Part shown: positions 41,349-49,338 of the stretch, one piece after another | Numbering within the stretch: the stretch's first letter is position 1 | How the letters are laid out: the number at the start of each line of letters is the position of its first letter | Source of the DNA: Anaerolineae bacterium | GTDB lineage: Bacteria; Chloroflexota; Anaerolineae; UBA1429 | DNA: 60,202 bases | Direction of reading: 5' to 3' | Assembly: GCA_007132185.1 (NCBI GenBank) | Contig: SLPC01000081.1 | Span: forward strand, 1 to 60,202 | The notes under the pieces: generated by a model | Told to the model about the DNA's origin: nothing | The model's input: the letters and a program-made list of their open reading frames with translations, nothing else | Database searches by the model: none | Program-made: the position numbers and the translations under genes

Positions 41349-41460
41349 GCGCCGCACAAATCGTGCATCACTGCAGCACAGGCGCTCTGCCGCATGGGGA
41401 TGTCCGCGGGCATATGGGCGTAAAATGGGCGTTTGCTCTGGCGTCAGGGGCGCATAGCGG

Positions 41461-41489
41461 TTGTGCGGTTTCTCACCCCATGTTATACT
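41461..41489 (+). promoter_or_regulatory. putative promoter of the HEAT/membrane-protein operon
   Basis: TTGTGC (41461-41466), 17-nt spacer ending in TGT, TATACT (41484-41489). Followed directly by the 14-bp palindrome TGCACCGCGGTGCA (41489-41502). Confidence 0.45.
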
Positions 41490-41548
41490 GCACCGCGGTG
41501 CAGACTAGGGTTCTCCAATCGGTCTTCTTAGCCCAAGGATACTACTCA

Positions 41549-42457
41549 TTGAGCCAATCTACCCGTGAGCGCGAGTCGAGTTCTCAAAGAGATGCCTTGA
41601 CACGCTGTATCGAGATTCAAAGCTATGCCGGGTCCACCAATCGCGAGATCGCAAGCGCATTGATGGCCTCTCTCACCGATGACGACCCTCTGGTACGGTG
41701 GGAAGCTGCCCTTGCGCTGGCCAAGACGGCACAAAACTTGGAGAATCCCCAATTGGGCCGCGTGCTCCGTAGCAAAGGCGATGCGCCGCTCACATTGGAT
41801 GAGCTGTTGGCTTGGATACAAAGAGATCTTGGAGAGTCCGATATAGCCCGACGCGAGGCTATATCGGACGCCCTGGGACATTGGCCGCAGCAGGCCGCCG
41901 TGCAGCTTTTGCGCGAGGCTATGCATGATGAGGCCTCCGGTGTGCGGGCCAGTGCGGCCCGTTCGCTGGGGCGTCTGGGCGCCATGGAGGCAACCGATAG
42001 CCTATTGGCGATGCTGGAAGATCCGTCGCTCTGGGTTCGTAGGGCGGCCGCCGACGCGCTGGGTACCATCGGGGACACCCGGGCTGTGGGCCCATTGTCC
42101 AGCATGGCTGCTCAAGGTCCCATGCTGACGCGGGTGGCGGCCATCTCGGCCCTCGGGCAGTTGCCCTCTCGCGAGGCGCGCCAACAGTTGATCGAGTGCC
42201 TCTCGGATGAGTGCGGCGAGATTCGCTGGAACGGCGCCAGAGCCCTGGAACAGATCGGAACCGTCGCGGCGCTGCCCGGATTGGAACGCCTTTTGAGCGA
42301 TGATTATACCCTTTTCGATCAATCCATTCATCGTATCGCCCAGTCTACGATTCTAGCAATCCGGCAAAGAGAGCAGGGAGCATGGCACGCCATCAGACAC
42401 GCCATCTTTCGGCTGCTGGGTTGGGTTCGCCGCCGGCGCGCCACCTGGCATCCATAG
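41549..42457 (+). CDS. HEAT-repeat protein (PBS-lyase HEAT-like repeats)
   Basis: Repeats DDPLVRWEAALALAK, DEASGVRASAARSLGRLG, DPSLWVRRAAADALGTIGD and GEIRWNGARALEQIG. Start tentatively TTG 41549 after AAGGA. The track ORF begins at 41363, upstream of the predicted promoter. Confidence 0.65.
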   Translation: MSQSTRERESSSQRDALTRCIEIQSYAGSTNREIASALMASLTDDDPLVRWEAALALAKTAQNLENPQLGRVLRSKGDAPLTLDELLAWIQRDLGESDIARREAISDALGHWPQQAAVQLLREAMHDEASGVRASAARSLGRLGAMEATDSLLAMLEDPSLWVRRAAADALGTIGDTRAVGPLSSMAAQGPMLTRVAAISALGQLPSREARQQLIECLSDECGEIRWNGARALEQIGTVAALPGLERLLSDDYTLFDQSIHRIAQSTILAIRQREQGAWHAIRHAIFRLLGWVRRRRATWHP

Positions 42458-42753
42458 GCACAATAGCCAAGGCCCCTGTAACAGCAGCCGCTGGAAACGA
42501 GCCTTTGCTCGAGGGGCTGACTAGCGCACTACAGGCGCGCCGATTGACCATGCCTGCCCTCTTTGTGCTGGAGATGATCAAGCCCTGGCGCTTTGTCGCC
42601 AGCCAACTACTGCTCATGTCCCAACCCCTATGGGGTGGGTCCGGACGGCAAGCGGTGGACCGATACGCCGCTTGGCTGGACACGCCTGATGGCATCGAGA
42701 CTCTCCAAATGGCCCTGCAACAGGCACGCGCTAACGAGACGAAAAGCAGATAA
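42382..42753 (+). CDS. small hypothetical protein (start uncertain; likely 42505-42550)
   Basis: The ORF overlaps the HEAT gene end by 76 nt. An internal ATG at 42550 gives MPALFVLEMIKPWRFVASQLLLMSQPLWGG. Its stop overlaps the next start (TAATG). Confidence 0.45.
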   Translation: MARHQTRHLSAAGLGSPPARHLASIGTIAKAPVTAAAGNEPLLEGLTSALQARRLTMPALFVLEMIKPWRFVASQLLLMSQPLWGGSGRQAVDRYAAWLDTPDGIETLQMALQQARANETKSR

Positions 42754-43520
42754 TGCCAGTACAACAGTTCGTGTTGACCTATCCGGTTGAGGCAGCCCTG
42801 ACTCTTTTGGGGCTCTTTATCTTCTTGTTCGTTCTGTTCAACCTGCTGAAACGGCCTGACAGCTCGTTCCTGCTGCGCCCGATTCCCGCTTATGAGCGTC
42901 TCCGAAACCTTACCGTGCAAAGCATCGAGACGGGCCAGCCGATGCACGTAAGCATGGGAAGCGGCGAGTGGAGTCAGGCCACGCCCGAGTTGGTGGCCGG
43001 GCTCATCGCCCTGGACTATGTGGGGCGGGAGGCGACGCGGGCCGATGAGGCCCTCTGCGCCACCATGGGCAACCCCGTCACCCTGCTGTTGGCTATGAAT
43101 GTTCTGCAGCTCAACTTTGTCCGCGCGGGCGCCTACACAGGTCCTGCCGGCAACGAGCTCTATTTCTACGGCCCTGATCGCTTGGCCTATGCGGGCGGCA
43201 GCGCGCATCAGGCGTATCGCCGCCCGCGAGAGGCCCACGCCCTCGTAGGAAACTTTGGTGATGACGGCCTGTGGTTGGCCGAAGCGCTACAGCCCGGTGG
43301 AGCGCCGGTTCTCGGCGGAACGAGCGACCCGGCCACCGCGGCCTTGATGCATCTTTCGGTGGACGAGTCGATTATCGGCGAGGACCTGTTTGCCGCGGGC
43401 GCCTATCTGCACCGCCCGCGCCATCTAGGCAGCCTGGCTGCTCAGGACGTGATGCGCTTCCTGGTTGCGCTGGCCATAATCGCAGGGGCTATTCTGGCCT
43501 CGTTGGGTGTCGGGGGATAG
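42753..43520 (+). CDS. membrane protein, unknown function
   Basis: 255 aa with N- and C-terminal TM helices. Start is coupled to the upstream stop (TAATG). Confidence 0.65.
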   Translation: MPVQQFVLTYPVEAALTLLGLFIFLFVLFNLLKRPDSSFLLRPIPAYERLRNLTVQSIETGQPMHVSMGSGEWSQATPELVAGLIALDYVGREATRADEALCATMGNPVTLLLAMNVLQLNFVRAGAYTGPAGNELYFYGPDRLAYAGGSAHQAYRRPREAHALVGNFGDDGLWLAEALQPGGAPVLGGTSDPATAALMHLSVDESIIGEDLFAAGAYLHRPRHLGSLAAQDVMRFLVALAIIAGAILASLGVGG

Positions 43521-43523
43521 TCG

Positions 43524-44135
43524 ATGAGACGTGTTCTGCCTATAGCCGTCACTTGTCTCACAGGCCTGGTAGTCCTGCTGGGCTTTTTCGGGAATGGCGA
43601 CATACTGGGCGGCTGGCCGAATCTGCTGGTCGAGGGGGCTGCCTTTTTGGCAGCGCTGGCGCTGCTGATGGGTGTCGCCCACCTGGCGCTGGCCCATGGG
43701 CGCCGTGCGGTGCGGGGGGAGCCGCAGGCGGGCTACAGCCTTGTCCTGGTCATCGCCATGCTGGCCACCTTTGGCCTCGGCGTGGTCTTGCCGGGCTCGG
43801 CAGAGCTGGCCTGGGTCTTTGATCACCTATATACCCCGCTCCAGGCGACCATGACGGCTCTACTCGCCTTTTTCGTTGTCAGTGCGGCCTACCGTGCCTT
43901 TCGTCTGCGCCACGCCGAGGCGGTCGTGCTGCTGATTACCAGCCTGTTCATGCTGCTCGGCCAGCTGGCCGTGAGTGAGCGTCTCTCGCCCATCATCCCG
44001 GCCCTGCGGGAGTGGACTTTGGCGATACCTGTGACGGCCGGCGTCCGCGGCATTTTGCTGGGCACAGCCCTGGGAACCCTGGCCGCCACGCTGCGTATCC
44101 TGACTGGCATAGACCGGCCCCAGGCCCTGGAGTAA
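43524..44135 (+). CDS. polytopic membrane protein, unknown function
   Basis: 203 aa with about 5-6 hydrophobic helices. It starts 3 nt after the upstream stop. Confidence 0.65.
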   Translation: MRRVLPIAVTCLTGLVVLLGFFGNGDILGGWPNLLVEGAAFLAALALLMGVAHLALAHGRRAVRGEPQAGYSLVLVIAMLATFGLGVVLPGSAELAWVFDHLYTPLQATMTALLAFFVVSAAYRAFRLRHAEAVVLLITSLFMLLGQLAVSERLSPIIPALREWTLAIPVTAGVRGILLGTALGTLAATLRILTGIDRPQALE

Positions 44136-44144
44136 GCTGCCAAG

Positions 44145-45407
44145 ATGATTGCCTGCCAAGAGTGCGGTCACAACAACCCCGAGTCGGCGCAGCGCTGCGA
44201 ATCCTGTGGCGCACCGCTGGGGCCTGCGCTGTACCGGGAATGCCCGGCCTGTGGCGCTCTCAATGCGGCCGAGCGCTCGACCTGCAGCCGGTGCCTGGCC
44301 CCTTTGACTGCGCCACCATCCGGTGCTGATGCGTCCGAGTCAGCCAGCGACAGCTCTTTTACCCAGGATGAGCCAACTGCCGGTGCGCCGCAAGAGGACG
44401 ATCCCCTCGCGGATCTGGAAGGCCTCTTGCCCCCAGCCGCTGTCCCCGATCCTGTCTCACAACCCAGTCGTTTCGCATCCCATGAATCCAGCGAGGCGGA
44501 ACGTGACGATGCCGCCCTATTACATCGTATCGCCACCGAGCCGGCGCCTCTGGGACAGGTGCGGCGAGAGGACGCACCGACTGGGCGTGAACGCATGCCA
44601 GACGGCATCCGCTGGCTGCTCTATCTGCTGGTGCTGCTGGCTGCGCTGGCGCCGCTGATCACGGGTAATCGCGGCCAGCAATGGGAGAGCCCCAGGCCAC
44701 AGACTCTGCTATTGGCGGAAGCTGTGGCGGACATTGCCCCAGGGGAGCGGGTGCTGGTGGCGTTCGACTATGCCCCGGGCTATGGCGGCGAGCTGGACCC
44801 GCTGGCCGAGCGTGTGCTCACCGATCTGGCGCGGCGGGGCGCCGTCCTCGTGGCGATCAGCACGCGGCCCGAGGGGGTGGGCCTCGCGCGGCAGGTGCTG
44901 GGGCGCGTCGCAACGTTCGCCCCTGACTATCGCTATGGAGCCAACTATGTCATTCTGGGATATTTGCCCGGGGCGGAGCGTGGCCTTCGGCTGGCAACCC
45001 AGGACCTGGCCGCCATCCTGCCCCATGATGACGTGCTCCAAATGCCATGGGAGCAGCTGCCGGCCATGCAGGGCATCGGGACGTTGAACGATTTCGAGGC
45101 GACTCTCTTGCTGACCGATGACGGCAACTCGGCGCGACGCTGGATCGAGCAGGTAGGCACACAGGTGGACACGCCAACCTATGCCCTGGCGACGGCGCGC
45201 ATCGAGCCGCTGCTGATCCCCTATCAGCAATCGGGCCAGTTGGCGGCCCTGGTGGGTGGAGTGTATGGAGCGCTGGAATATCCCCTGGAGGATGCGCCGG
45301 AACGCCATGACCTGCATAGCACGGACGGCTACCTGGCCCTGCTGGGTGTGTTCTTTCTCGCCGCTGTATTGGCCAATGTGGTTCCGTGGCGCATGCACCA
45401 GAACTGA
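44145..45407 (+). CDS. zinc-ribbon protein with acidic linker, TM helix and extracytoplasmic domain
   Basis: N-terminal double zinc ribbon CQECGHNNPESAQRCESCGAPL...CPACGALNAAERSTCSRC, a D/E/P-rich linker, and the TM helix IRWLLYLLVLLAALAPLI. Confidence 0.7.
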   Translation: MIACQECGHNNPESAQRCESCGAPLGPALYRECPACGALNAAERSTCSRCLAPLTAPPSGADASESASDSSFTQDEPTAGAPQEDDPLADLEGLLPPAAVPDPVSQPSRFASHESSEAERDDAALLHRIATEPAPLGQVRREDAPTGRERMPDGIRWLLYLLVLLAALAPLITGNRGQQWESPRPQTLLLAEAVADIAPGERVLVAFDYAPGYGGELDPLAERVLTDLARRGAVLVAISTRPEGVGLARQVLGRVATFAPDYRYGANYVILGYLPGAERGLRLATQDLAAILPHDDVLQMPWEQLPAMQGIGTLNDFEATLLLTDDGNSARRWIEQVGTQVDTPTYALATARIEPLLIPYQQSGQLAALVGGVYGALEYPLEDAPERHDLHSTDGYLALLGVFFLAAVLANVVPWRMHQN

Positions 45408-45434
45408 CCGCAGAGCGAAAGGAGCATAGCAGAC

Positions 45435-46127
45435 GTGCCGCTCGCCAATATAGGCAACCTGATCGGGATCTGGATAGCCGGCCTGCTCACGCTGGCCGTC
45501 CTAAGCTATATCCTGGGCGATAACCCGGTCTATCGCCTGGCGCAGCATCTCTTTGTGGGAATCGCTGCCGGCTATGCGGCGGCCCTGGCATGGAACCATG
45601 TCCTGGCGCCCCGGCTGACGCGCCTGGTGCAAGCCCCGGCAGAGGCCTGGCCCGTGGCGCTGTTCGCGCTCCTGGGACTGCTGCTACTGGCTCGTGGGTG
45701 GCGCCCACTCGCCGCCCTCTCCGGGATTCCCCTCGGCTTGCTCATGGGCACCGGGGCAGCCCTCGCCCTGGGAGGCATCCTCACGGGCACCCTGGTGCCC
45801 CAGTTGGCCGCTTCTTTCGTGCCGCTGGCCCCTGCTGCCTATGGCGGCGGCGTCATGGGGTGGGCCTTGGCGCTGGACGCGGCCTTTTTGCTGCTATGCA
45901 CCCTGGCTGTACTGGCCGCCTTTCAGTATCACCGCGCCGCTCGAGGCTCATTGCGCCTCTGGTATCGTGGCGTGCAGGCGATGGGGCGGTTGGGCCGCCT
46001 CGTGATGATGGTTGCCTTTGGCGCCATCCTGGCCGGAGCGGCCCTTTCCTTCTTTACCATCCTGCAGAGCCGCCTCGCTTTTCTGGTTTACGAGTGGCTG
46101 GGTAGCCTGGCAGAATTGGGGCTCTAG
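45435..46127 (+). CDS. polytopic membrane protein, unknown function
   Basis: 230 aa with about 6 TM helices and GC-rich third codon positions. Confidence 0.65.
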   Translation: MPLANIGNLIGIWIAGLLTLAVLSYILGDNPVYRLAQHLFVGIAAGYAAALAWNHVLAPRLTRLVQAPAEAWPVALFALLGLLLLARGWRPLAALSGIPLGLLMGTGAALALGGILTGTLVPQLAASFVPLAPAAYGGGVMGWALALDAAFLLLCTLAVLAAFQYHRAARGSLRLWYRGVQAMGRLGRLVMMVAFGAILAGAALSFFTILQSRLAFLVYEWLGSLAELGL

Positions 46128-46130
46128 ATC

Positions 46131-47849
46131 ATGTCCACAGATAGTTCGATTCGGTCCATCCTCGCCCTGGACATTGGGGCGACTCTCACCCATGCGGCTC
46201 TGCTAGAGCCGGTTGAGGGGGCGCATCGCATGGTCGCCTGCGTCAACACGCCCACCACCCTGCGCCCACAGACAGACCTGGTCGCCAGCCTGCATCGCTC
46301 TGTCGAGCGCATCCAAGAGATCGTGGGCCGCCGTCTCTTCGATGAGGACGGCACACCGAGCAAGCCACGTCAGGGGCAAAAGGGAATAGACGCTCTGATA
46401 GTTACGCTGAGCGCCGCAGCCCCGCTGGAATGCGCCCTCATCGGGCTTACAGAGGATCTCAGCCTCAAGAGCGCCAGGGCGGCCTGCCAATCCGGGCATA
46501 CGATCGTCCGCCGCGAGATCATTCTGGCCCAAGAGCGCCATGCGCGCCACCGTGAACTGGCGGCGCTGCGTCAAGATCCGTCAGAGGTCATCATTATAGC
46601 GGGCGGGGTCGATGGCGGGCCGGTGCATCAGGTCATCGATGCCGCCGAGCTACTGGCGACCCTCTTTGCAGATCTCGAGCCACAGCTACGGCCAACAGTG
46701 CTCTTTGCCGGGAATCAGGAGGCCCGCCGTCCCATAGCGGCTGCTTTGGGGCCCGATTTTGGCTTTGGCGTGGTAGACAATGTACAGCCCACGCCCGATC
46801 TGAGCAGTCCGCAGGAACTGCAACGGGAGTTGGCTCATCTCTACGAGAGGCGCAAATTCCCCGAGCTCGCGGGATACGATACCCTCTCGGAATGGACTAG
46901 CATACCCCTCATGGCCAGCCAGACGGGCCTGAGGGCGATTCTACAGTTTCTCAGTCGCCAGGGACTCTATGGCTCACGGGTCTTGGGCCTTGATGTAGGT
47001 GGCCGCCAGACGACAGCCGCCCTGGCCAATGGGCGACTCGTCGCGAGCCAGAGCATCCAGGTGGGCATGTCTCAGGGCCTTGAGGATCTGCTGCACGCCG
47101 TGGACATAGAATACATCCAGCGCTGGCTCCCCACCGAGGACCTGACCCGCCGGGCGGCGGCGCAACTGGGCAATCAGGCGCTGCGCCCACAGAGCCTGCC
47201 CACCGAGCCCGATGATCTTGTCTTGATCCAAGCCGCCATGCGAGAGGCCGTGCGCCTAACTCTGACAGGCCTGACGTTGAACCTGCATGAGCACCCCAGG
47301 GAGACCTGGGCAGTGGACGCGATCGCGGCTCGGGGCGGCTCGTTGCTGCATGCAAGGCCGGATGCGCAGGCGACCCTTGCCCTACTCGACGCCGTACAGC
47401 CGGTGGGTACCACCCGCCTGCTTCTGGATTGGGCCTCTGTCTGGCCGCAGCTCGGCGCGCTAGCTCAGATCGAGCCATTGGCCGCGTTACAGGTGCTCGA
47501 CCGTGACGCCCTGCTCGACCTGGGTACCATAGTCAGCTTGCCGGGCCAAGGAGATACGGATCAGACCGCCGCGCACTTGAGTCTGTTGCGCAATGTGGGC
47601 GGCGTCCAGGTGGCCAACATCGACTGGGGACACCTGTTGCGGCTCGATCTGGATCATGGCGAGACTGCAATCCTGGAAATCAACCCGGTGACGGGCACCT
47701 GGCAGGGGTCGAAGGAGACCCGGAGCGTCAAGGTGCAAGGCGGGCGCCTGGGACTGATTCTCGATGCTCGCGGACGCCCCTTGGCGCTACCAGAGGATGC
47801 CGAGATGCGCCGCGGAAAGATGCAGACATGGACAAAAGAGCTCTCCTGA
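46131..47849 (+). CDS. GlmL/MutL-like actin-fold ATPase family protein
   Basis: ILALDIGATLTHAALL (phosphate-1-like), IIAGGVDGG and LFAGNQEA motifs resembling the glutamate mutase accessory protein GlmL. It starts 3 nt after the upstream stop. Confidence 0.65.
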   Translation: MSTDSSIRSILALDIGATLTHAALLEPVEGAHRMVACVNTPTTLRPQTDLVASLHRSVERIQEIVGRRLFDEDGTPSKPRQGQKGIDALIVTLSAAAPLECALIGLTEDLSLKSARAACQSGHTIVRREIILAQERHARHRELAALRQDPSEVIIIAGGVDGGPVHQVIDAAELLATLFADLEPQLRPTVLFAGNQEARRPIAAALGPDFGFGVVDNVQPTPDLSSPQELQRELAHLYERRKFPELAGYDTLSEWTSIPLMASQTGLRAILQFLSRQGLYGSRVLGLDVGGRQTTAALANGRLVASQSIQVGMSQGLEDLLHAVDIEYIQRWLPTEDLTRRAAAQLGNQALRPQSLPTEPDDLVLIQAAMREAVRLTLTGLTLNLHEHPRETWAVDAIAARGGSLLHARPDAQATLALLDAVQPVGTTRLLLDWASVWPQLGALAQIEPLAALQVLDRDALLDLGTIVSLPGQGDTDQTAAHLSLLRNVGGVQVANIDWGHLLRLDLDHGETAILEINPVTGTWQGSKETRSVKVQGGRLGLILDARGRPLALPEDAEMRRGKMQTWTKELS

Positions 47850-48898
47850 CAACCGAACCAGGGTGTATGATTTCGCCGCTCGCCATTATCTTGCGTGAAC
47901 GCCTGCTGGCCTGCCCCGGCGAGGTATTGGTGCAGATGGGGGATCATCTGACTTCGGATGACGTCGTCGCGCGTCCGGCAGCCGGGGGCTCTCTTGTGGC
48001 GATGGACTTGGCCAGGGAGATGGATATCGACCCCCTGCGTGTGGACCGTCATCTCCTAGTGCAGGCCGGCGATCAGGTCACGCCAGGCGCGTTGGTGGCT
48101 CAACGAAGGCATTGGGGCCCATTCTACCGGCAAGTGCGCGCCGAGCTCCTGGGCGATGTGGTCGGCATCCATGATGGAAGTCTGTTCTTGCGCCAGGTCG
48201 GTGAACCGGGCCTACTGCGCGCCTTTGTACCGGGAGAGGTCGTAAAAGTGCATCCCGGCCGAGGGGCCTCGATCCGGACCACCGGCGCCTATATGCGCTG
48301 CATTTGGGGGTGTGGCGGCGAGGGTTGGGGGAGATTGTCCATGATGGTAGACGATCCCGGAGCCCCCCTAACCTGGAATCAAGTCGGGAGGCGGCAACGT
48401 GGCCAGGTGCTGGTGGGGGGGCATCTCGAGAATCCGCGTACATTGTCCCGCGCCGAACTGTTTGGCGTGCGCGGCATCATAGCGGGCAGCATCGATCCCG
48501 GGTTGATGCGCCAGTGCAAGCAGCTTTCCATTCCCGTCCTCGTCACGGAAGGAATGGGCGATGCTCCCATGGCGAACCCCATCCATGAGATGCTCGCGCT
48601 ACACCACAAACGTTGGGCCGTCCTATCAGGGAACTGCTCCAGGGGGCAGGCCGAGCTGATCATTCCCCTTCCAGGCAAGGCGGACAATCTGGACGTCACC
48701 AACCCAAACTCGCTCAAGGAGGGCTGTCTCGTGCGCCTGACGAGCCCCTCACTCTGTGGCATGGTGGCCGCGATCGAGTCGCTTCCCACCGAGAGGCAAC
48801 CGACCGGACTCGGATATCTGACGCACGGCGCGATTGTGCGGCTGTCTGATCAAAGCAGCCTCTTTGTTCCGCTCTCCAACTTGGAGCTTTTGAGATAG
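47828..48898 (+). CDS. hypothetical protein (last gene of the operon)
   Basis: 356 aa. It overlaps the upstream gene by 22 nt (alternative ATG at 47866). No family recognised. VQAGDQVTPGALVA is reminiscent of barrel-sandwich hybrid folds. Confidence 0.55.
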   Translation: MDKRALLTTEPGCMISPLAIILRERLLACPGEVLVQMGDHLTSDDVVARPAAGGSLVAMDLAREMDIDPLRVDRHLLVQAGDQVTPGALVAQRRHWGPFYRQVRAELLGDVVGIHDGSLFLRQVGEPGLLRAFVPGEVVKVHPGRGASIRTTGAYMRCIWGCGGEGWGRLSMMVDDPGAPLTWNQVGRRQRGQVLVGGHLENPRTLSRAELFGVRGIIAGSIDPGLMRQCKQLSIPVLVTEGMGDAPMANPIHEMLALHHKRWAVLSGNCSRGQAELIIPLPGKADNLDVTNPNSLKEGCLVRLTSPSLCGMVAAIESLPTERQPTGLGYLTHGAIVRLSDQSSLFVPLSNLELLR

Positions 48899-48924: not shown

Positions 48925-48953
48925 TTGTCGCGTCCCGTGCCGGATGCTATAAT
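48925..48953 (+). promoter_or_regulatory. putative gatCA promoter (extended -10)
   Basis: TTGTCG (48925-48930), 17-nt spacer, TGC TATAAT (48945-48953). Confidence 0.5.
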
Positions 48954-49050: not shown

Positions 49051-49338
49051 ATGAAGCTGGATCGCGAGCAGGTATTGCACATCGCCGAGCTGGCCAAGCT
49101 CTCGCTGACCGAAGAGGAGACCGAGCTATTCTCCGAGCAGCTCTCCGAGGTGCTGGCCTATTTCGAGCAACTCCAGGAGCTGGACACTGACGACATCCCG
49201 CCAACGGCCCAGGCGATCTACCAGCGGAACGTGATGCGCCCAGATACCACCGCGCCATGCCTGACGCCTGATGAGGCTCTTGCCAACGCGCCACAGCGCA
49301 AGGGCGACTACTTTCAGGTCAAGCCGATCCTGGACTAG
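49051..49338 (+). CDS. gatC: Asp-tRNA(Asn)/Glu-tRNA(Gln) amidotransferase subunit C
   Basis: MKLDREQVLHIAELAKLSLTEEETELFSEQLSEVLAYFEQLQELDT. 95 aa. SD GGGAGG. Confidence 0.9.
   Translation: MKLDREQVLHIAELAKLSLTEEETELFSEQLSEVLAYFEQLQELDTDDIPPTAQAIYQRNVMRPDTTAPCLTPDEALANAPQRKGDYFQVKPILD

Follow-up and report, generated by a model that had tools for sequence, protein, structure and literature searches.

The DNA analysed here, called the window below, is the whole 60,202-nucleotide stretch of contig SLPC01000081.1 (assembly GCA_007132185.1) from an Anaerolineae bacterium of the phylum Chloroflexota. Its subject is a run of eight co-directional genes, g1 to g8, on the + strand between positions 41480 and 48898. 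The listing of open reading frames (ORFs), a direct reading of the sequence and a check of starts and stops agree on this layout, and they bear out an earlier note on this DNA, which had described about eight tightly coupled genes pointing in one direction. The genes and the promoter-like site ahead of them are as follows.

41461-41489, + strand: putative weak promoter, TTGTGC-17-TATACT, a sequence match only
41480-42457, + strand: g1, HEAT-repeat protein of about 325 residues, start uncertain; a lineage-specific accessory
42382-42753, + strand: g2, small protein (alternative TTG start at 42505)
42753-43520, + strand: g3, DUF6754 protein
43524-44135, + strand: g4, polytopic membrane protein of 203 residues
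44145-45407, + strand: g5, zinc-ribbon membrane protein
45435-46127, + strand: g6, polytopic membrane protein of 230 residues, GTG start
46131-47849, + strand: g7, PF13941 ASKHA-fold ATPase
47828-48898, + strand: g8, partner of g7

The six junctions claimed in the earlier note were all reproduced exactly: g2 and g3 meet at TAATG, gaps of 3, 9, 27 and 3 nt separate g3/g4, g4/g5, g5/g6 and g6/g7, and g7 overlaps g8 by 22 nt. With the ATG at 42382, which is preceded by AGGGAG, as the start of g2, g1 and g2 overlap by 76 nt; with the TTG at 42505, a gap of 47 nt separates them. In-frame start candidates for g1 lie at 41363, 41414, 41480, 41498, 41549 and 41597. The claim of a single putative promoter fared less well. 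The hexamers are present, with the -35-like one beginning at 41461, but they match the consensus at just 8/12 positions, the -10-like one overlaps the g1 ATG at 41480, and a consensus promoter scan, whose threshold this candidate did not reach, reported no + strand site 5' of g1. One promoter for the whole operon is possible but not supported, and a single transcript is deduced from gene spacing alone because the scan found nothing ahead of g1. A sequence that resembles a promoter much more closely, TTGTCG-17-TATAAT extended by a TG (10/12 positions, 48925-48953, + strand), lies between the g8 stop at 48898 and gatC at 49051. It suggests that the transcription unit stops at g8 and that gatCA probably has its own promoter, although these genes stand 3' of the module in many Anaerolineae.

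The product of g7 is assigned to the ASKHA clan by a match of residues 10-458 to PF13941 'MutL' at 2e-48, with 165.7 bits where 27 suffice, along profile positions 1-448 of 450, and an orthologue from a second clade of loci, described below, scores 419 bits on the same profile. Alignment shows D14, G16, G158, G159, D161, G163, D288, G290 and G402 to be invariant, and the Gly/Asp motifs of the ASKHA phosphate-1, phosphate-2 and adenosine type are intact. An extra conserved C-terminal domain or barrel of about 110 residues carries a DARGRPL motif. The protein had been called a GlmL-like ATPase, and as a statement about the PF13941/ASKHA fold this holds. It does not extend to orthology: the GlmL equivalog NF040745 is matched at 59.8 bits against a cut-off of 475 (E 2.1e-16), over residues 11-313 only, TIGR01319 is matched at 38.9 bits against 204, and no mutase genes are adjacent. 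By these scores g7 is not a GlmL orthologue. A profile search of PDB sequences gave no solved relative of g7, the best match (E 0.0024) being a 133-residue hypothetical protein aligned over the C-terminal domain. One Anaerolineales contig (UBA1429) carries the full g1-g7 set with gatC directly after g7 and no g8 (L002:10001-11578), and two more g7 homologues, P0013 and P0005, resemble the g7 of that contig in length (525 and 537 residues).

The last gene, described earlier as a 356-residue protein without a known family, indeed has no Pfam match in the window, and some of its homologues match PF13375 or PF00364. The g8 protein is predicted to be cytoplasmic because it has neither a transmembrane helix nor a signal peptide. 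Its AlphaFold2 model (predicted local distance difference test score, pLDDT, 88.4) comprises an N-terminal barrel-sandwich hybrid of lipoyl or RnfC_N type, a middle alpha/beta domain of swivelling type and a C-terminal KOW/SH3-like barrel, so that the protein is built from beta-rich domains of interaction type. Foldseek matched the model to Thermotoga maritima NusG, the ZNRF3 PA domain, RraA, UPF0107 and Spt5 KOW, and a profile search matched NusG/Spt5 KOW and GcvH/BCCP. The ZNRF3 PA match falls on the middle domain, where the matches to RraA (1q5x) and UPF0107 (2hi6) are weak and generic (template-modelling score, TM-score, by target 0.48-0.64), and over the whole chain the best TM-scores among PDB chains are 0.15-0.26, leaving the middle domain and the overall architecture with no counterpart. 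No lipoyl or biotinyl attachment motif was identified in g8, nor were Rnf/Nqr redox domains. A CW_7 peptidoglycan-binding repeat, raised by a match to the Cpl-7 lysozyme (5i8l, E 1.1e-7), was rejected as chance because a single Gly-rich motif (QGiWGvGgE) was matched three times, each at E ~1, in a region that is beta-strand in the model. The family is large, with 3996 representative clusters at 50% identity for E <= 1e-3 and 1389 for E <= 1e-30. In two protein families g7 and g8 are fused, namely P0077 (845 residues) and P0322 (995 residues, from the exhaustive search); the P0077 fusion lies at L015:10001-12538, with no membrane module within 10 kb. Judged from sequence, g8 is an obligate partner of g7.

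Between the small g2 gene and this pair lie four genes for membrane proteins. The first, g3, is a distant member of DUF6754 (PF20539, 3.3e-25, 89.1 bits against a cut-off of 27), on which second-clade orthologues score 380-417 bits. The earlier note had counted g3, g4 and g6 as three membrane proteins, which is correct, but g3 is not polytopic: by hydropathy and an AlphaFold2 model (pLDDT 89, predicted TM-score 0.82) an N-terminal transmembrane helix is followed by a six-stranded parallel alpha/beta domain, about 190 soluble residues in all, and by a C-terminal transmembrane helix. A GxGxxG-like loop (family consensus LGSGxxG) follows strand 1, and the soluble domain is Rossmann-like and probably nucleotide-binding. 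Foldseek searches of the PDB returned only generic nucleotide-binding alpha/beta proteins (shikimate dehydrogenase, the MthK RCK domain, USP) at E >= 3.7e-3 and TM-scores <= 0.4, and profile searches of PDB sequences returned nothing for g3. The DUF6754 domain is placed in the cytoplasm because second-clade orthologues carry an additional N-terminal signal-like segment and an fn3 domain, and because a K/R cluster follows the first transmembrane helix. A B12-binding domain was considered for g3 and rejected, as no B12-binding fold stands among the listed Foldseek matches; as we read its sequence pattern, the His that is conserved sits in strand 1 and not in a DxHxxG loop.

The g4 and g6 proteins each have about six transmembrane helices by hydropathy, supported by alignment (A6 for g4, A7 for g6), and the alignments show Arg, Gly and polar residues conserved inside their membrane segments. 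In g4, which stands directly 3' of g3 in every locus examined, the conserved Arg/Gly motifs are AYRAFRLR, RGILLGxALG and LRxLxxxDRP (alignment A6); the GTG start of g6 is preceded at 11 nt by AAAGGAG. Neither protein has a relative in Pfam, NCBIfam or PDB sequences. Paralogy between g4 and g6, and between the g3 and g5 domains, was rejected at the sensitivity of the hhalign comparison, which used alignments of 8-13 sequences and was repeated with 47-56 (probability <= 1.8%).

The g5 protein begins with a double C4 zinc ribbon (PF12773/PF13240; Cys 4, 7, 18, 21 and 33, 36, 47, 50), followed at residues 55-150 by a linker with 20 D/E, 13 P and no K, so that Pfam matches and composition agree with the cytoplasmic double ribbon and acidic, Pro-rich linker noted before. 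A transmembrane helix and an outside domain had also been proposed and are retained, with two corrections: there are two hydrophobic helices (154-172 and 395-413; hydropathy, alignment A8) instead of one, and the alpha/beta-type outside domain between them measures about 220 rather than about 250 residues. Both ends are predicted to face the cytoplasm because both carry positive residues. A PLA(G/D)LExLLP motif is conserved, and linker length varies between loci from about 100 to more than 500 residues. In an 889-residue orthologue (L014:6623-9292) the cytoplasmic linker has expanded to about 500 residues with 11 copies of P-[DSA]-W-[LV] (PDWL, PAWL, PSWL); these look like multivalent short linear binding motifs. 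The linker in the window shows none but the conserved element, there PLADLEGLLP. Second-clade g5 orthologues (269-300 residues) consist of helix, domain and helix only, and this is the sole part of g5 conserved outside Chloroflexota. In profile searches of PDB sequences the zinc ribbon was the only part of g5 to match, with nothing for the outside domain. The earlier remark that none of the membrane components was recognised as a known transporter or secretion family agrees with the Pfam and NCBIfam searches: against transporter, permease and secretion families, g3-g6 gave only sub-threshold noise (for example TMD0_ABC, E 0.03, 14.9 against 27 bits).

Related loci were called from ORFs and annotated with hidden Markov models (HMMs) built from our own alignments, and taxon labels are those given by the submitters of metagenome-assembled genomes (MAGs), as names on exact-match proteins or contigs. 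The locus searches used the narrower alignments A2 and A9, since A1 and A3 were too diverse for a pattern-based search; the second-clade set holds the 80 best of more than 600 metagenome stretches matched with a seed from a distant g8 clade. When the eight proteins were compared by tblastn with 11 contigs found through g7, 10 Anaerolineae MAG contigs yielded every gene, in unchanged order, at E 1e-5 to 1e-140. All eight are therefore regarded as real coding genes, recovered as they are in 10 independent contigs. Across these colinear loci g7 identity runs from 79% down to 36%, gatC-gatA follows the module in 8/11 loci with a position that is stable at g7 identities of 37% to 80%, and the 22-nt g7/g8 overlap is kept in L001. 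Two more distant loci of Chloroflexota type (L012 and L014, g7 about 30% identical) have the order g2-g3-g4-g5-g6-g7-g8 without the HEAT gene, and a g7 homologue of similar distance belongs to a cluster with a Thermoflexus label. Linkage of g2-g8 was detected in loci of 25-35% identity and holds down to 25-30%.

Within the second clade the same genes recur in other arrangements. The dominant layout is gX-g2-g7-g8-(g3-g4-g5-g6)n with n = 1-3, where gX is an additional small gene, and two or three membrane-gene sets stand behind a single g2-g7-g8 in L067, L070, L075, L080, L088 and L096 (e.g. L075:11255-20278); the tandem g3 copies differ in their N-terminal outside segments of fn3 type. Other orders are g2-g7-g8-g3-g4-g5-g6 (L017), g7-g8-g3-g4 on a contig that ends early (L019) and ...g5-g6-gX-g2-g7-g8 (L020), and in L021 g3-g4 is divergent from g7-g8. 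Directly 5' of g8 lies g7 in 44/55 second-clade loci with enough upstream sequence, and of the 23 loci flanked on either side by 6 kb or more, 15 contain the complete set of four membrane families. Linkage thus persists when genes are permuted, inverted, multiplied in tandem or fused. Labels of the carriers are Chloroflexota, Latescibacterota, Nitrospirota, Planctomycetota/Scalindua, WOR-3, Poribacteria and Gemmatimonadota (one contig 'Gemmatimonadetes'), and by homology g2-g8 is a seven-gene core, met again in MAGs that carry the labels of seven or more phyla. The high second-clade scores, 419 bits for g7 and about 400 for g3, suggest that the PF13941 and DUF6754 models were largely built from such sequences. 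Conservation of gene order across phyla had been named as a check in the earlier note; the linkage is kept far beyond close relatives, whereas the order itself is permuted in the second clade.

The HEAT repeats of g1, recognised before from sequence, are confirmed by Pfam (PF13646 1.7e-35, PF03130 9.6e-21), and L002-L006, L008 and L010 have orthologues of 320-327 residues ahead of the module, but the gene is missing from L012, L014 and all second-clade loci. This pattern marks the g1 HEAT protein, together with the zinc ribbon and linker of g5, as lineage-specific accessories and not core parts. The g2 protein, which has no Pfam or NCBIfam family, shows a conserved core of about 75 residues (40-115) with the moderately hydrophobic stretch PALFVLEMIKPWRFVASQLLLMSQPLW. 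Its gene accompanies g7/g8, with homologues directly 5' of g7 in L017, L020 and most second-clade loci (HMM, E 1e-15 to 1e-20). Directly 5' of g2 in turn lies gX (e.g. L017:7343-7813), a protein of about 150 residues with two transmembrane helices followed by a small, beta-rich and perhaps PH-like domain. It was found in 23 second-clade loci by HMM and in 11 by neighbour clustering, and is absent from the window and the Chloroflexota loci; the colinear Anaerolineae loci have the HEAT gene in its position. Clustering of 542 flanking genes gave no consistent functional neighbours beyond gX and g1 (in 7 Anaerolineae loci), the remaining clusters being unrelated housekeeping genes (glycine cleavage P protein, lipoyl synthase, LpxB, peptide ABC components). 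Cell-wall genes were met beside or within the module in two single cases that do not recur: a protein with PG_binding_1 and Peptidase_M15_4 domains between g2 and g7 (L096:7008-7802) and a LytR_cpsA_psr gene directly 5' of g7 (L018:6879-8201).

Of the core members, g3 (DUF6754) and g7 (PF13941) alone have Pfam families, and both families are uncharacterised. No function for the module was found in the solved structures, NCBIfam, PADLOC or the literature searched. PADLOC-DB 2.0 gave no match for g2-g8 and only generic HEAT models for g1, and full-text literature searches returned no paper on DUF6754, PF13941 or TIGR01319 and nothing relevant on GlmL as an ASKHA protein or on 'glutamate mutase L'. 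The 'fifth actin family' FcmB of 2025 was considered and set aside, as it consists of ParM-derived proteins unrelated to the module. The earlier suggestion of an undescribed system is sustained by these results, in that profile searches of each protein lead to no characterised pathway and the linkage is conserved across phyla.

In our best reading of these observations the operon codes for a multiprotein machine at the membrane that is driven by ATP and has not been described before, a proposal to which we give somewhat better than even chances. We infer that the g2-g8 proteins form a physical complex. In this model g3, g4, g5 and g6, which are encoded together and behave as one duplicable unit, would make up a platform in the membrane. 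Its parts would be two unrelated proteins of about six helices (g4 and g6), a hairpin-anchored g3 with its Rossmann-like domain facing the cytoplasm and a hairpin-anchored g5 with its alpha/beta domain facing outside. The cytoplasmic unit would be the g7 ATPase bound to g8 and accompanied by g2. It would work as a non-polymerising, nucleotide-dependent clamp in the manner of Hsp70 or DdrA, docking on the platform from the cytoplasm, with the g3 domain as the most plausible site. ATP binding and hydrolysis would then shift the conformation of the platform, and thereby that of the outside domain or of a path through g4/g6. One ATPase unit could serve several paralogous platforms, and the HEAT protein g1 and the zinc-ribbon and disordered linker of g5 would be adaptors added in Anaerolineae. 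A clamp is proposed rather than a filament because the nearest relatives of g7, GlmL, EutA, DdrA and Hsp70, are listed as non-polymerising members of the actin superfamily (PMC5597319); the earlier description of an actin-fold ATPase is accordingly right at the level of the superfamily but not if taken to mean the branch of the cytoskeletal actins.

The output of such a machine may be envelope-directed transport or assembly. This is our preferred guess, drawn by inference only from the outside domains (of g5 in all loci and of fn3 type on second-clade g3), the polar intramembrane residues conserved in the two polytopic proteins and the transporter-like tandem paralogy. The second-clade phyla are taken to be diderm.

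Several observations weigh against a machine of this kind. In L002 the g7 gene is shortened to 526 residues and has no g8 next to it. Eight of the 23 well-flanked second-clade loci have g8, with or without g7, and no membrane genes within 10 kb (e.g. L018, L034, L056, L059, L073), so a platform in cis does not always accompany the ATPase pair. In L018 the g7-g8 pair lies beside an AAA+ gene only, with no membrane module, and in L034 (unlabelled), L056 (Poribacteria label) and L059 (WOR-3) g8 stands alone with no g7 within 10 kb, among housekeeping neighbours (DnaK, AccA, RF-1/PrmC). The Foldseek matches of g3 and of the g8 middle domain are, in addition, weak and generic.

Among other explanations, the one with the most to recommend it, though still unlikely in our estimate, is that g7 is a polymerising actin-like protein and the module a membrane-anchored cytoskeleton like MreB with RodZ/MreC/MreD, or MamK with its adaptors, which would place or shape something at the membrane, the tandem modules being alternative anchors. 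The actin-superfamily fold of g7 and its linkage to bitopic and polytopic membrane proteins would fit this, most of the named Chloroflexota carriers are Anaerolineae, a filamentous group, and new bacterial actin families are still emerging (PMC12645912). However, at E <= 0.1 g7 has no Pfam match to MreB, FtsA, ParM, MamK, PilM or actin and matches nothing but PF13941 and, weakly, NCBIfam models of GlmL type; second-clade g7, apart from PF13941, matches only hydantoinase and BcrAD-type ASKHA enzymes, which do not polymerise; and the extra C-terminal barrel and a fixed, sometimes fused partner of about 360 residues are unlike known filament formers. Slightly less probable again is that g3-g6 form a channel or transporter in which g3 is a nucleotide sensor like RCK/KTN domains and g7/g8 act as regulator or chaperone instead of motor. 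Here the Rossmann-like domain of g3 with its GxGxxG-like loop would find a use, and the MthK RCK domain ranks second among the structural matches of g3 with a probability of 1.00, but at E 5e-3 and TM-scores of 0.32-0.37. The unrelated six-helix proteins g4 and g6, with Arg, Gly and polar residues conserved in the membrane, and the paralogous tandem modules would also suit a channel, tandem paralogy being common for transporters with different substrates. Set against these points, no component matches a Pfam transporter family or TrkA_N, the structural matches are generic, and neighbour clustering found no substrate-binding or pathway genes consistently nearby.

Two further readings carry very little weight. 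That g7 is a reactivating chaperone of GlmL/EutA/DdrA type for a coenzyme-B12 enzyme, with the membrane genes as unrelated neighbours, seems very improbable to us, even though NCBI names of g7 homologues read 'glutamate mutase L', GlmL and Or-4 models of NCBIfam are weakly matched, and g8 has a domain of swivelling type, a fold that also occurs in DdrA. The GlmL score falls far short of its cut-off and covers only part of the protein, no mutase, B12-binding or eut/pdu gene occurs in the operon, in its flanks in the window or among the recurrent neighbours of about 100 loci, and rearrangement across phyla has not broken the link to the membrane genes. The faintest chance of all is given to a role in anti-phage defence or as some other mobile accessory system. 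Several genes in one cassette, an ATPase and a HEAT protein among them, a patchy distribution over phyla and the weak HEAT matches in PADLOC would suit such a role; the failure of g2-g8 to match PADLOC models, a base composition like that of the rest of the window, the stable position beside gatCA and the lack of any integrase or transposase at the module borders in the window argue otherwise.

If the proposed ATP-driven machine is real, a wider claim comes within reach, which we advance only tentatively: that it represents a new class of trans-membrane machine, in which an ASKHA ATPase of the Hsp70/GlmL branch (g7), with g8 as its dedicated three-domain partner, energises one or several interchangeable g3-g6 platforms and so moves or assembles something across or at the cytoplasmic membrane. 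Such energy coupling would be distinct from that of ABC, AAA+, FtsK/VirB4-type and ion-driven systems. To our knowledge, all well-studied bacterial membrane machines use ABC or other P-loop ATPases, AAA+ ATPases, or ion gradients, and the actin-superfamily proteins found at membranes are known as scaffolds or filaments. What sets the module apart is an ATPase of the chaperone branch of ASKHA proteins whose gene is firmly linked to those of a four-protein membrane unit, as seen in its fusion to a partner, a linkage proof against rearrangement and one-to-many tandem arrays. The system would have escaped genetics because most of the carrier lineages are poorly cultured. Defining its function would give a role to PF13941 and DUF6754, both Pfam families without one, and to at least five families with no Pfam model, and might reveal a new envelope process in the carrier phyla.

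The surroundings of the module in the window are of housekeeping type: MFS transporter, Mur-ligase/FolC-like, TrpB-like, GatC, GatA, nucleotidyl transferase and alanine dehydrogenase genes. The 590-nt gap 5' of g1 is mostly filled, since a T-box leader (RF00230, 41312-41003, - strand, 109 bits, E 3e-23) occupies it on the opposite strand. The leader serves the divergent PALP/TrpB-like gene (40893-39535), and a near-consensus promoter-like TTGACA-17-TAGAAT at 41348-41320 (- strand) belongs to it. Besides the T-box, the sole Rfam match in the window is a tRNA gene (RF00005, 27386-27470, + strand, 53 bits).

Several known systems invite comparison. With GlmL, EutA and DdrA, g7 shares the ASKHA fold and a weak sequence similarity (PF13941; NF040745 at 2.1e-16), and we take the large subunit of DdrA to combine an ASKHA with a swivelling domain, as the g7 and g8 pair seems to do, though this is a resemblance only. 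The differences are the extra C-terminal barrel, the linkage to four membrane proteins and the absence of a B12 enzyme nearby: in the window the neighbours of g7 are membrane proteins, g8, gatCA and TrpB-like and FolC-like genes, not glmS/glmE, and profile searches of the PDB with g7 and g8 matched no DdrA or EutA chain. At its two ends g8 has domains whose folds match those of the RnfC/NqrA N-terminal hybrid, of lipoyl and biotinyl carriers and of the NusG/Spt5 KOW domain. The cytoplasmic domain of g3, with its Gly-rich loop and membrane helices, recalls MthK and KtrAB/TrkAH, but the match is weak, there is no TrkA_N Pfam match, the domain lies between two transmembrane helices and no K+ pore signature was seen. 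The topology of g5 and its partners of about six helices and 200-240 residues may resemble the ABC auxiliary component GldG, a large outside domain between two transmembrane helices, with GldF, from which the module differs in having no ABC2_membrane or ABC_transp_aux Pfam match, no ABC ATPase and an ATPase of ASKHA type. In MreB-RodZ-MreC-MreD, FtsA-FtsN, PilM-PilN-PilO and GspL, as here, a cytoplasmic protein of the actin superfamily is encoded with bitopic and polytopic membrane proteins, and g5 can be likened to RodZ in its small cytoplasmic domain, linker, transmembrane helix and outside domain. No component has sequence or profile similarity to these systems, however; the superfamily branch is another one, and the module adds four new membrane families and g8. 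As a whole the module has no counterpart in its way of working that could be named with assurance; its nearest analogies are actin-fold proteins with membrane partners, such as MreB/RodZ/MreCD and PilMNO, and transport systems built from an ATPase and a platform.

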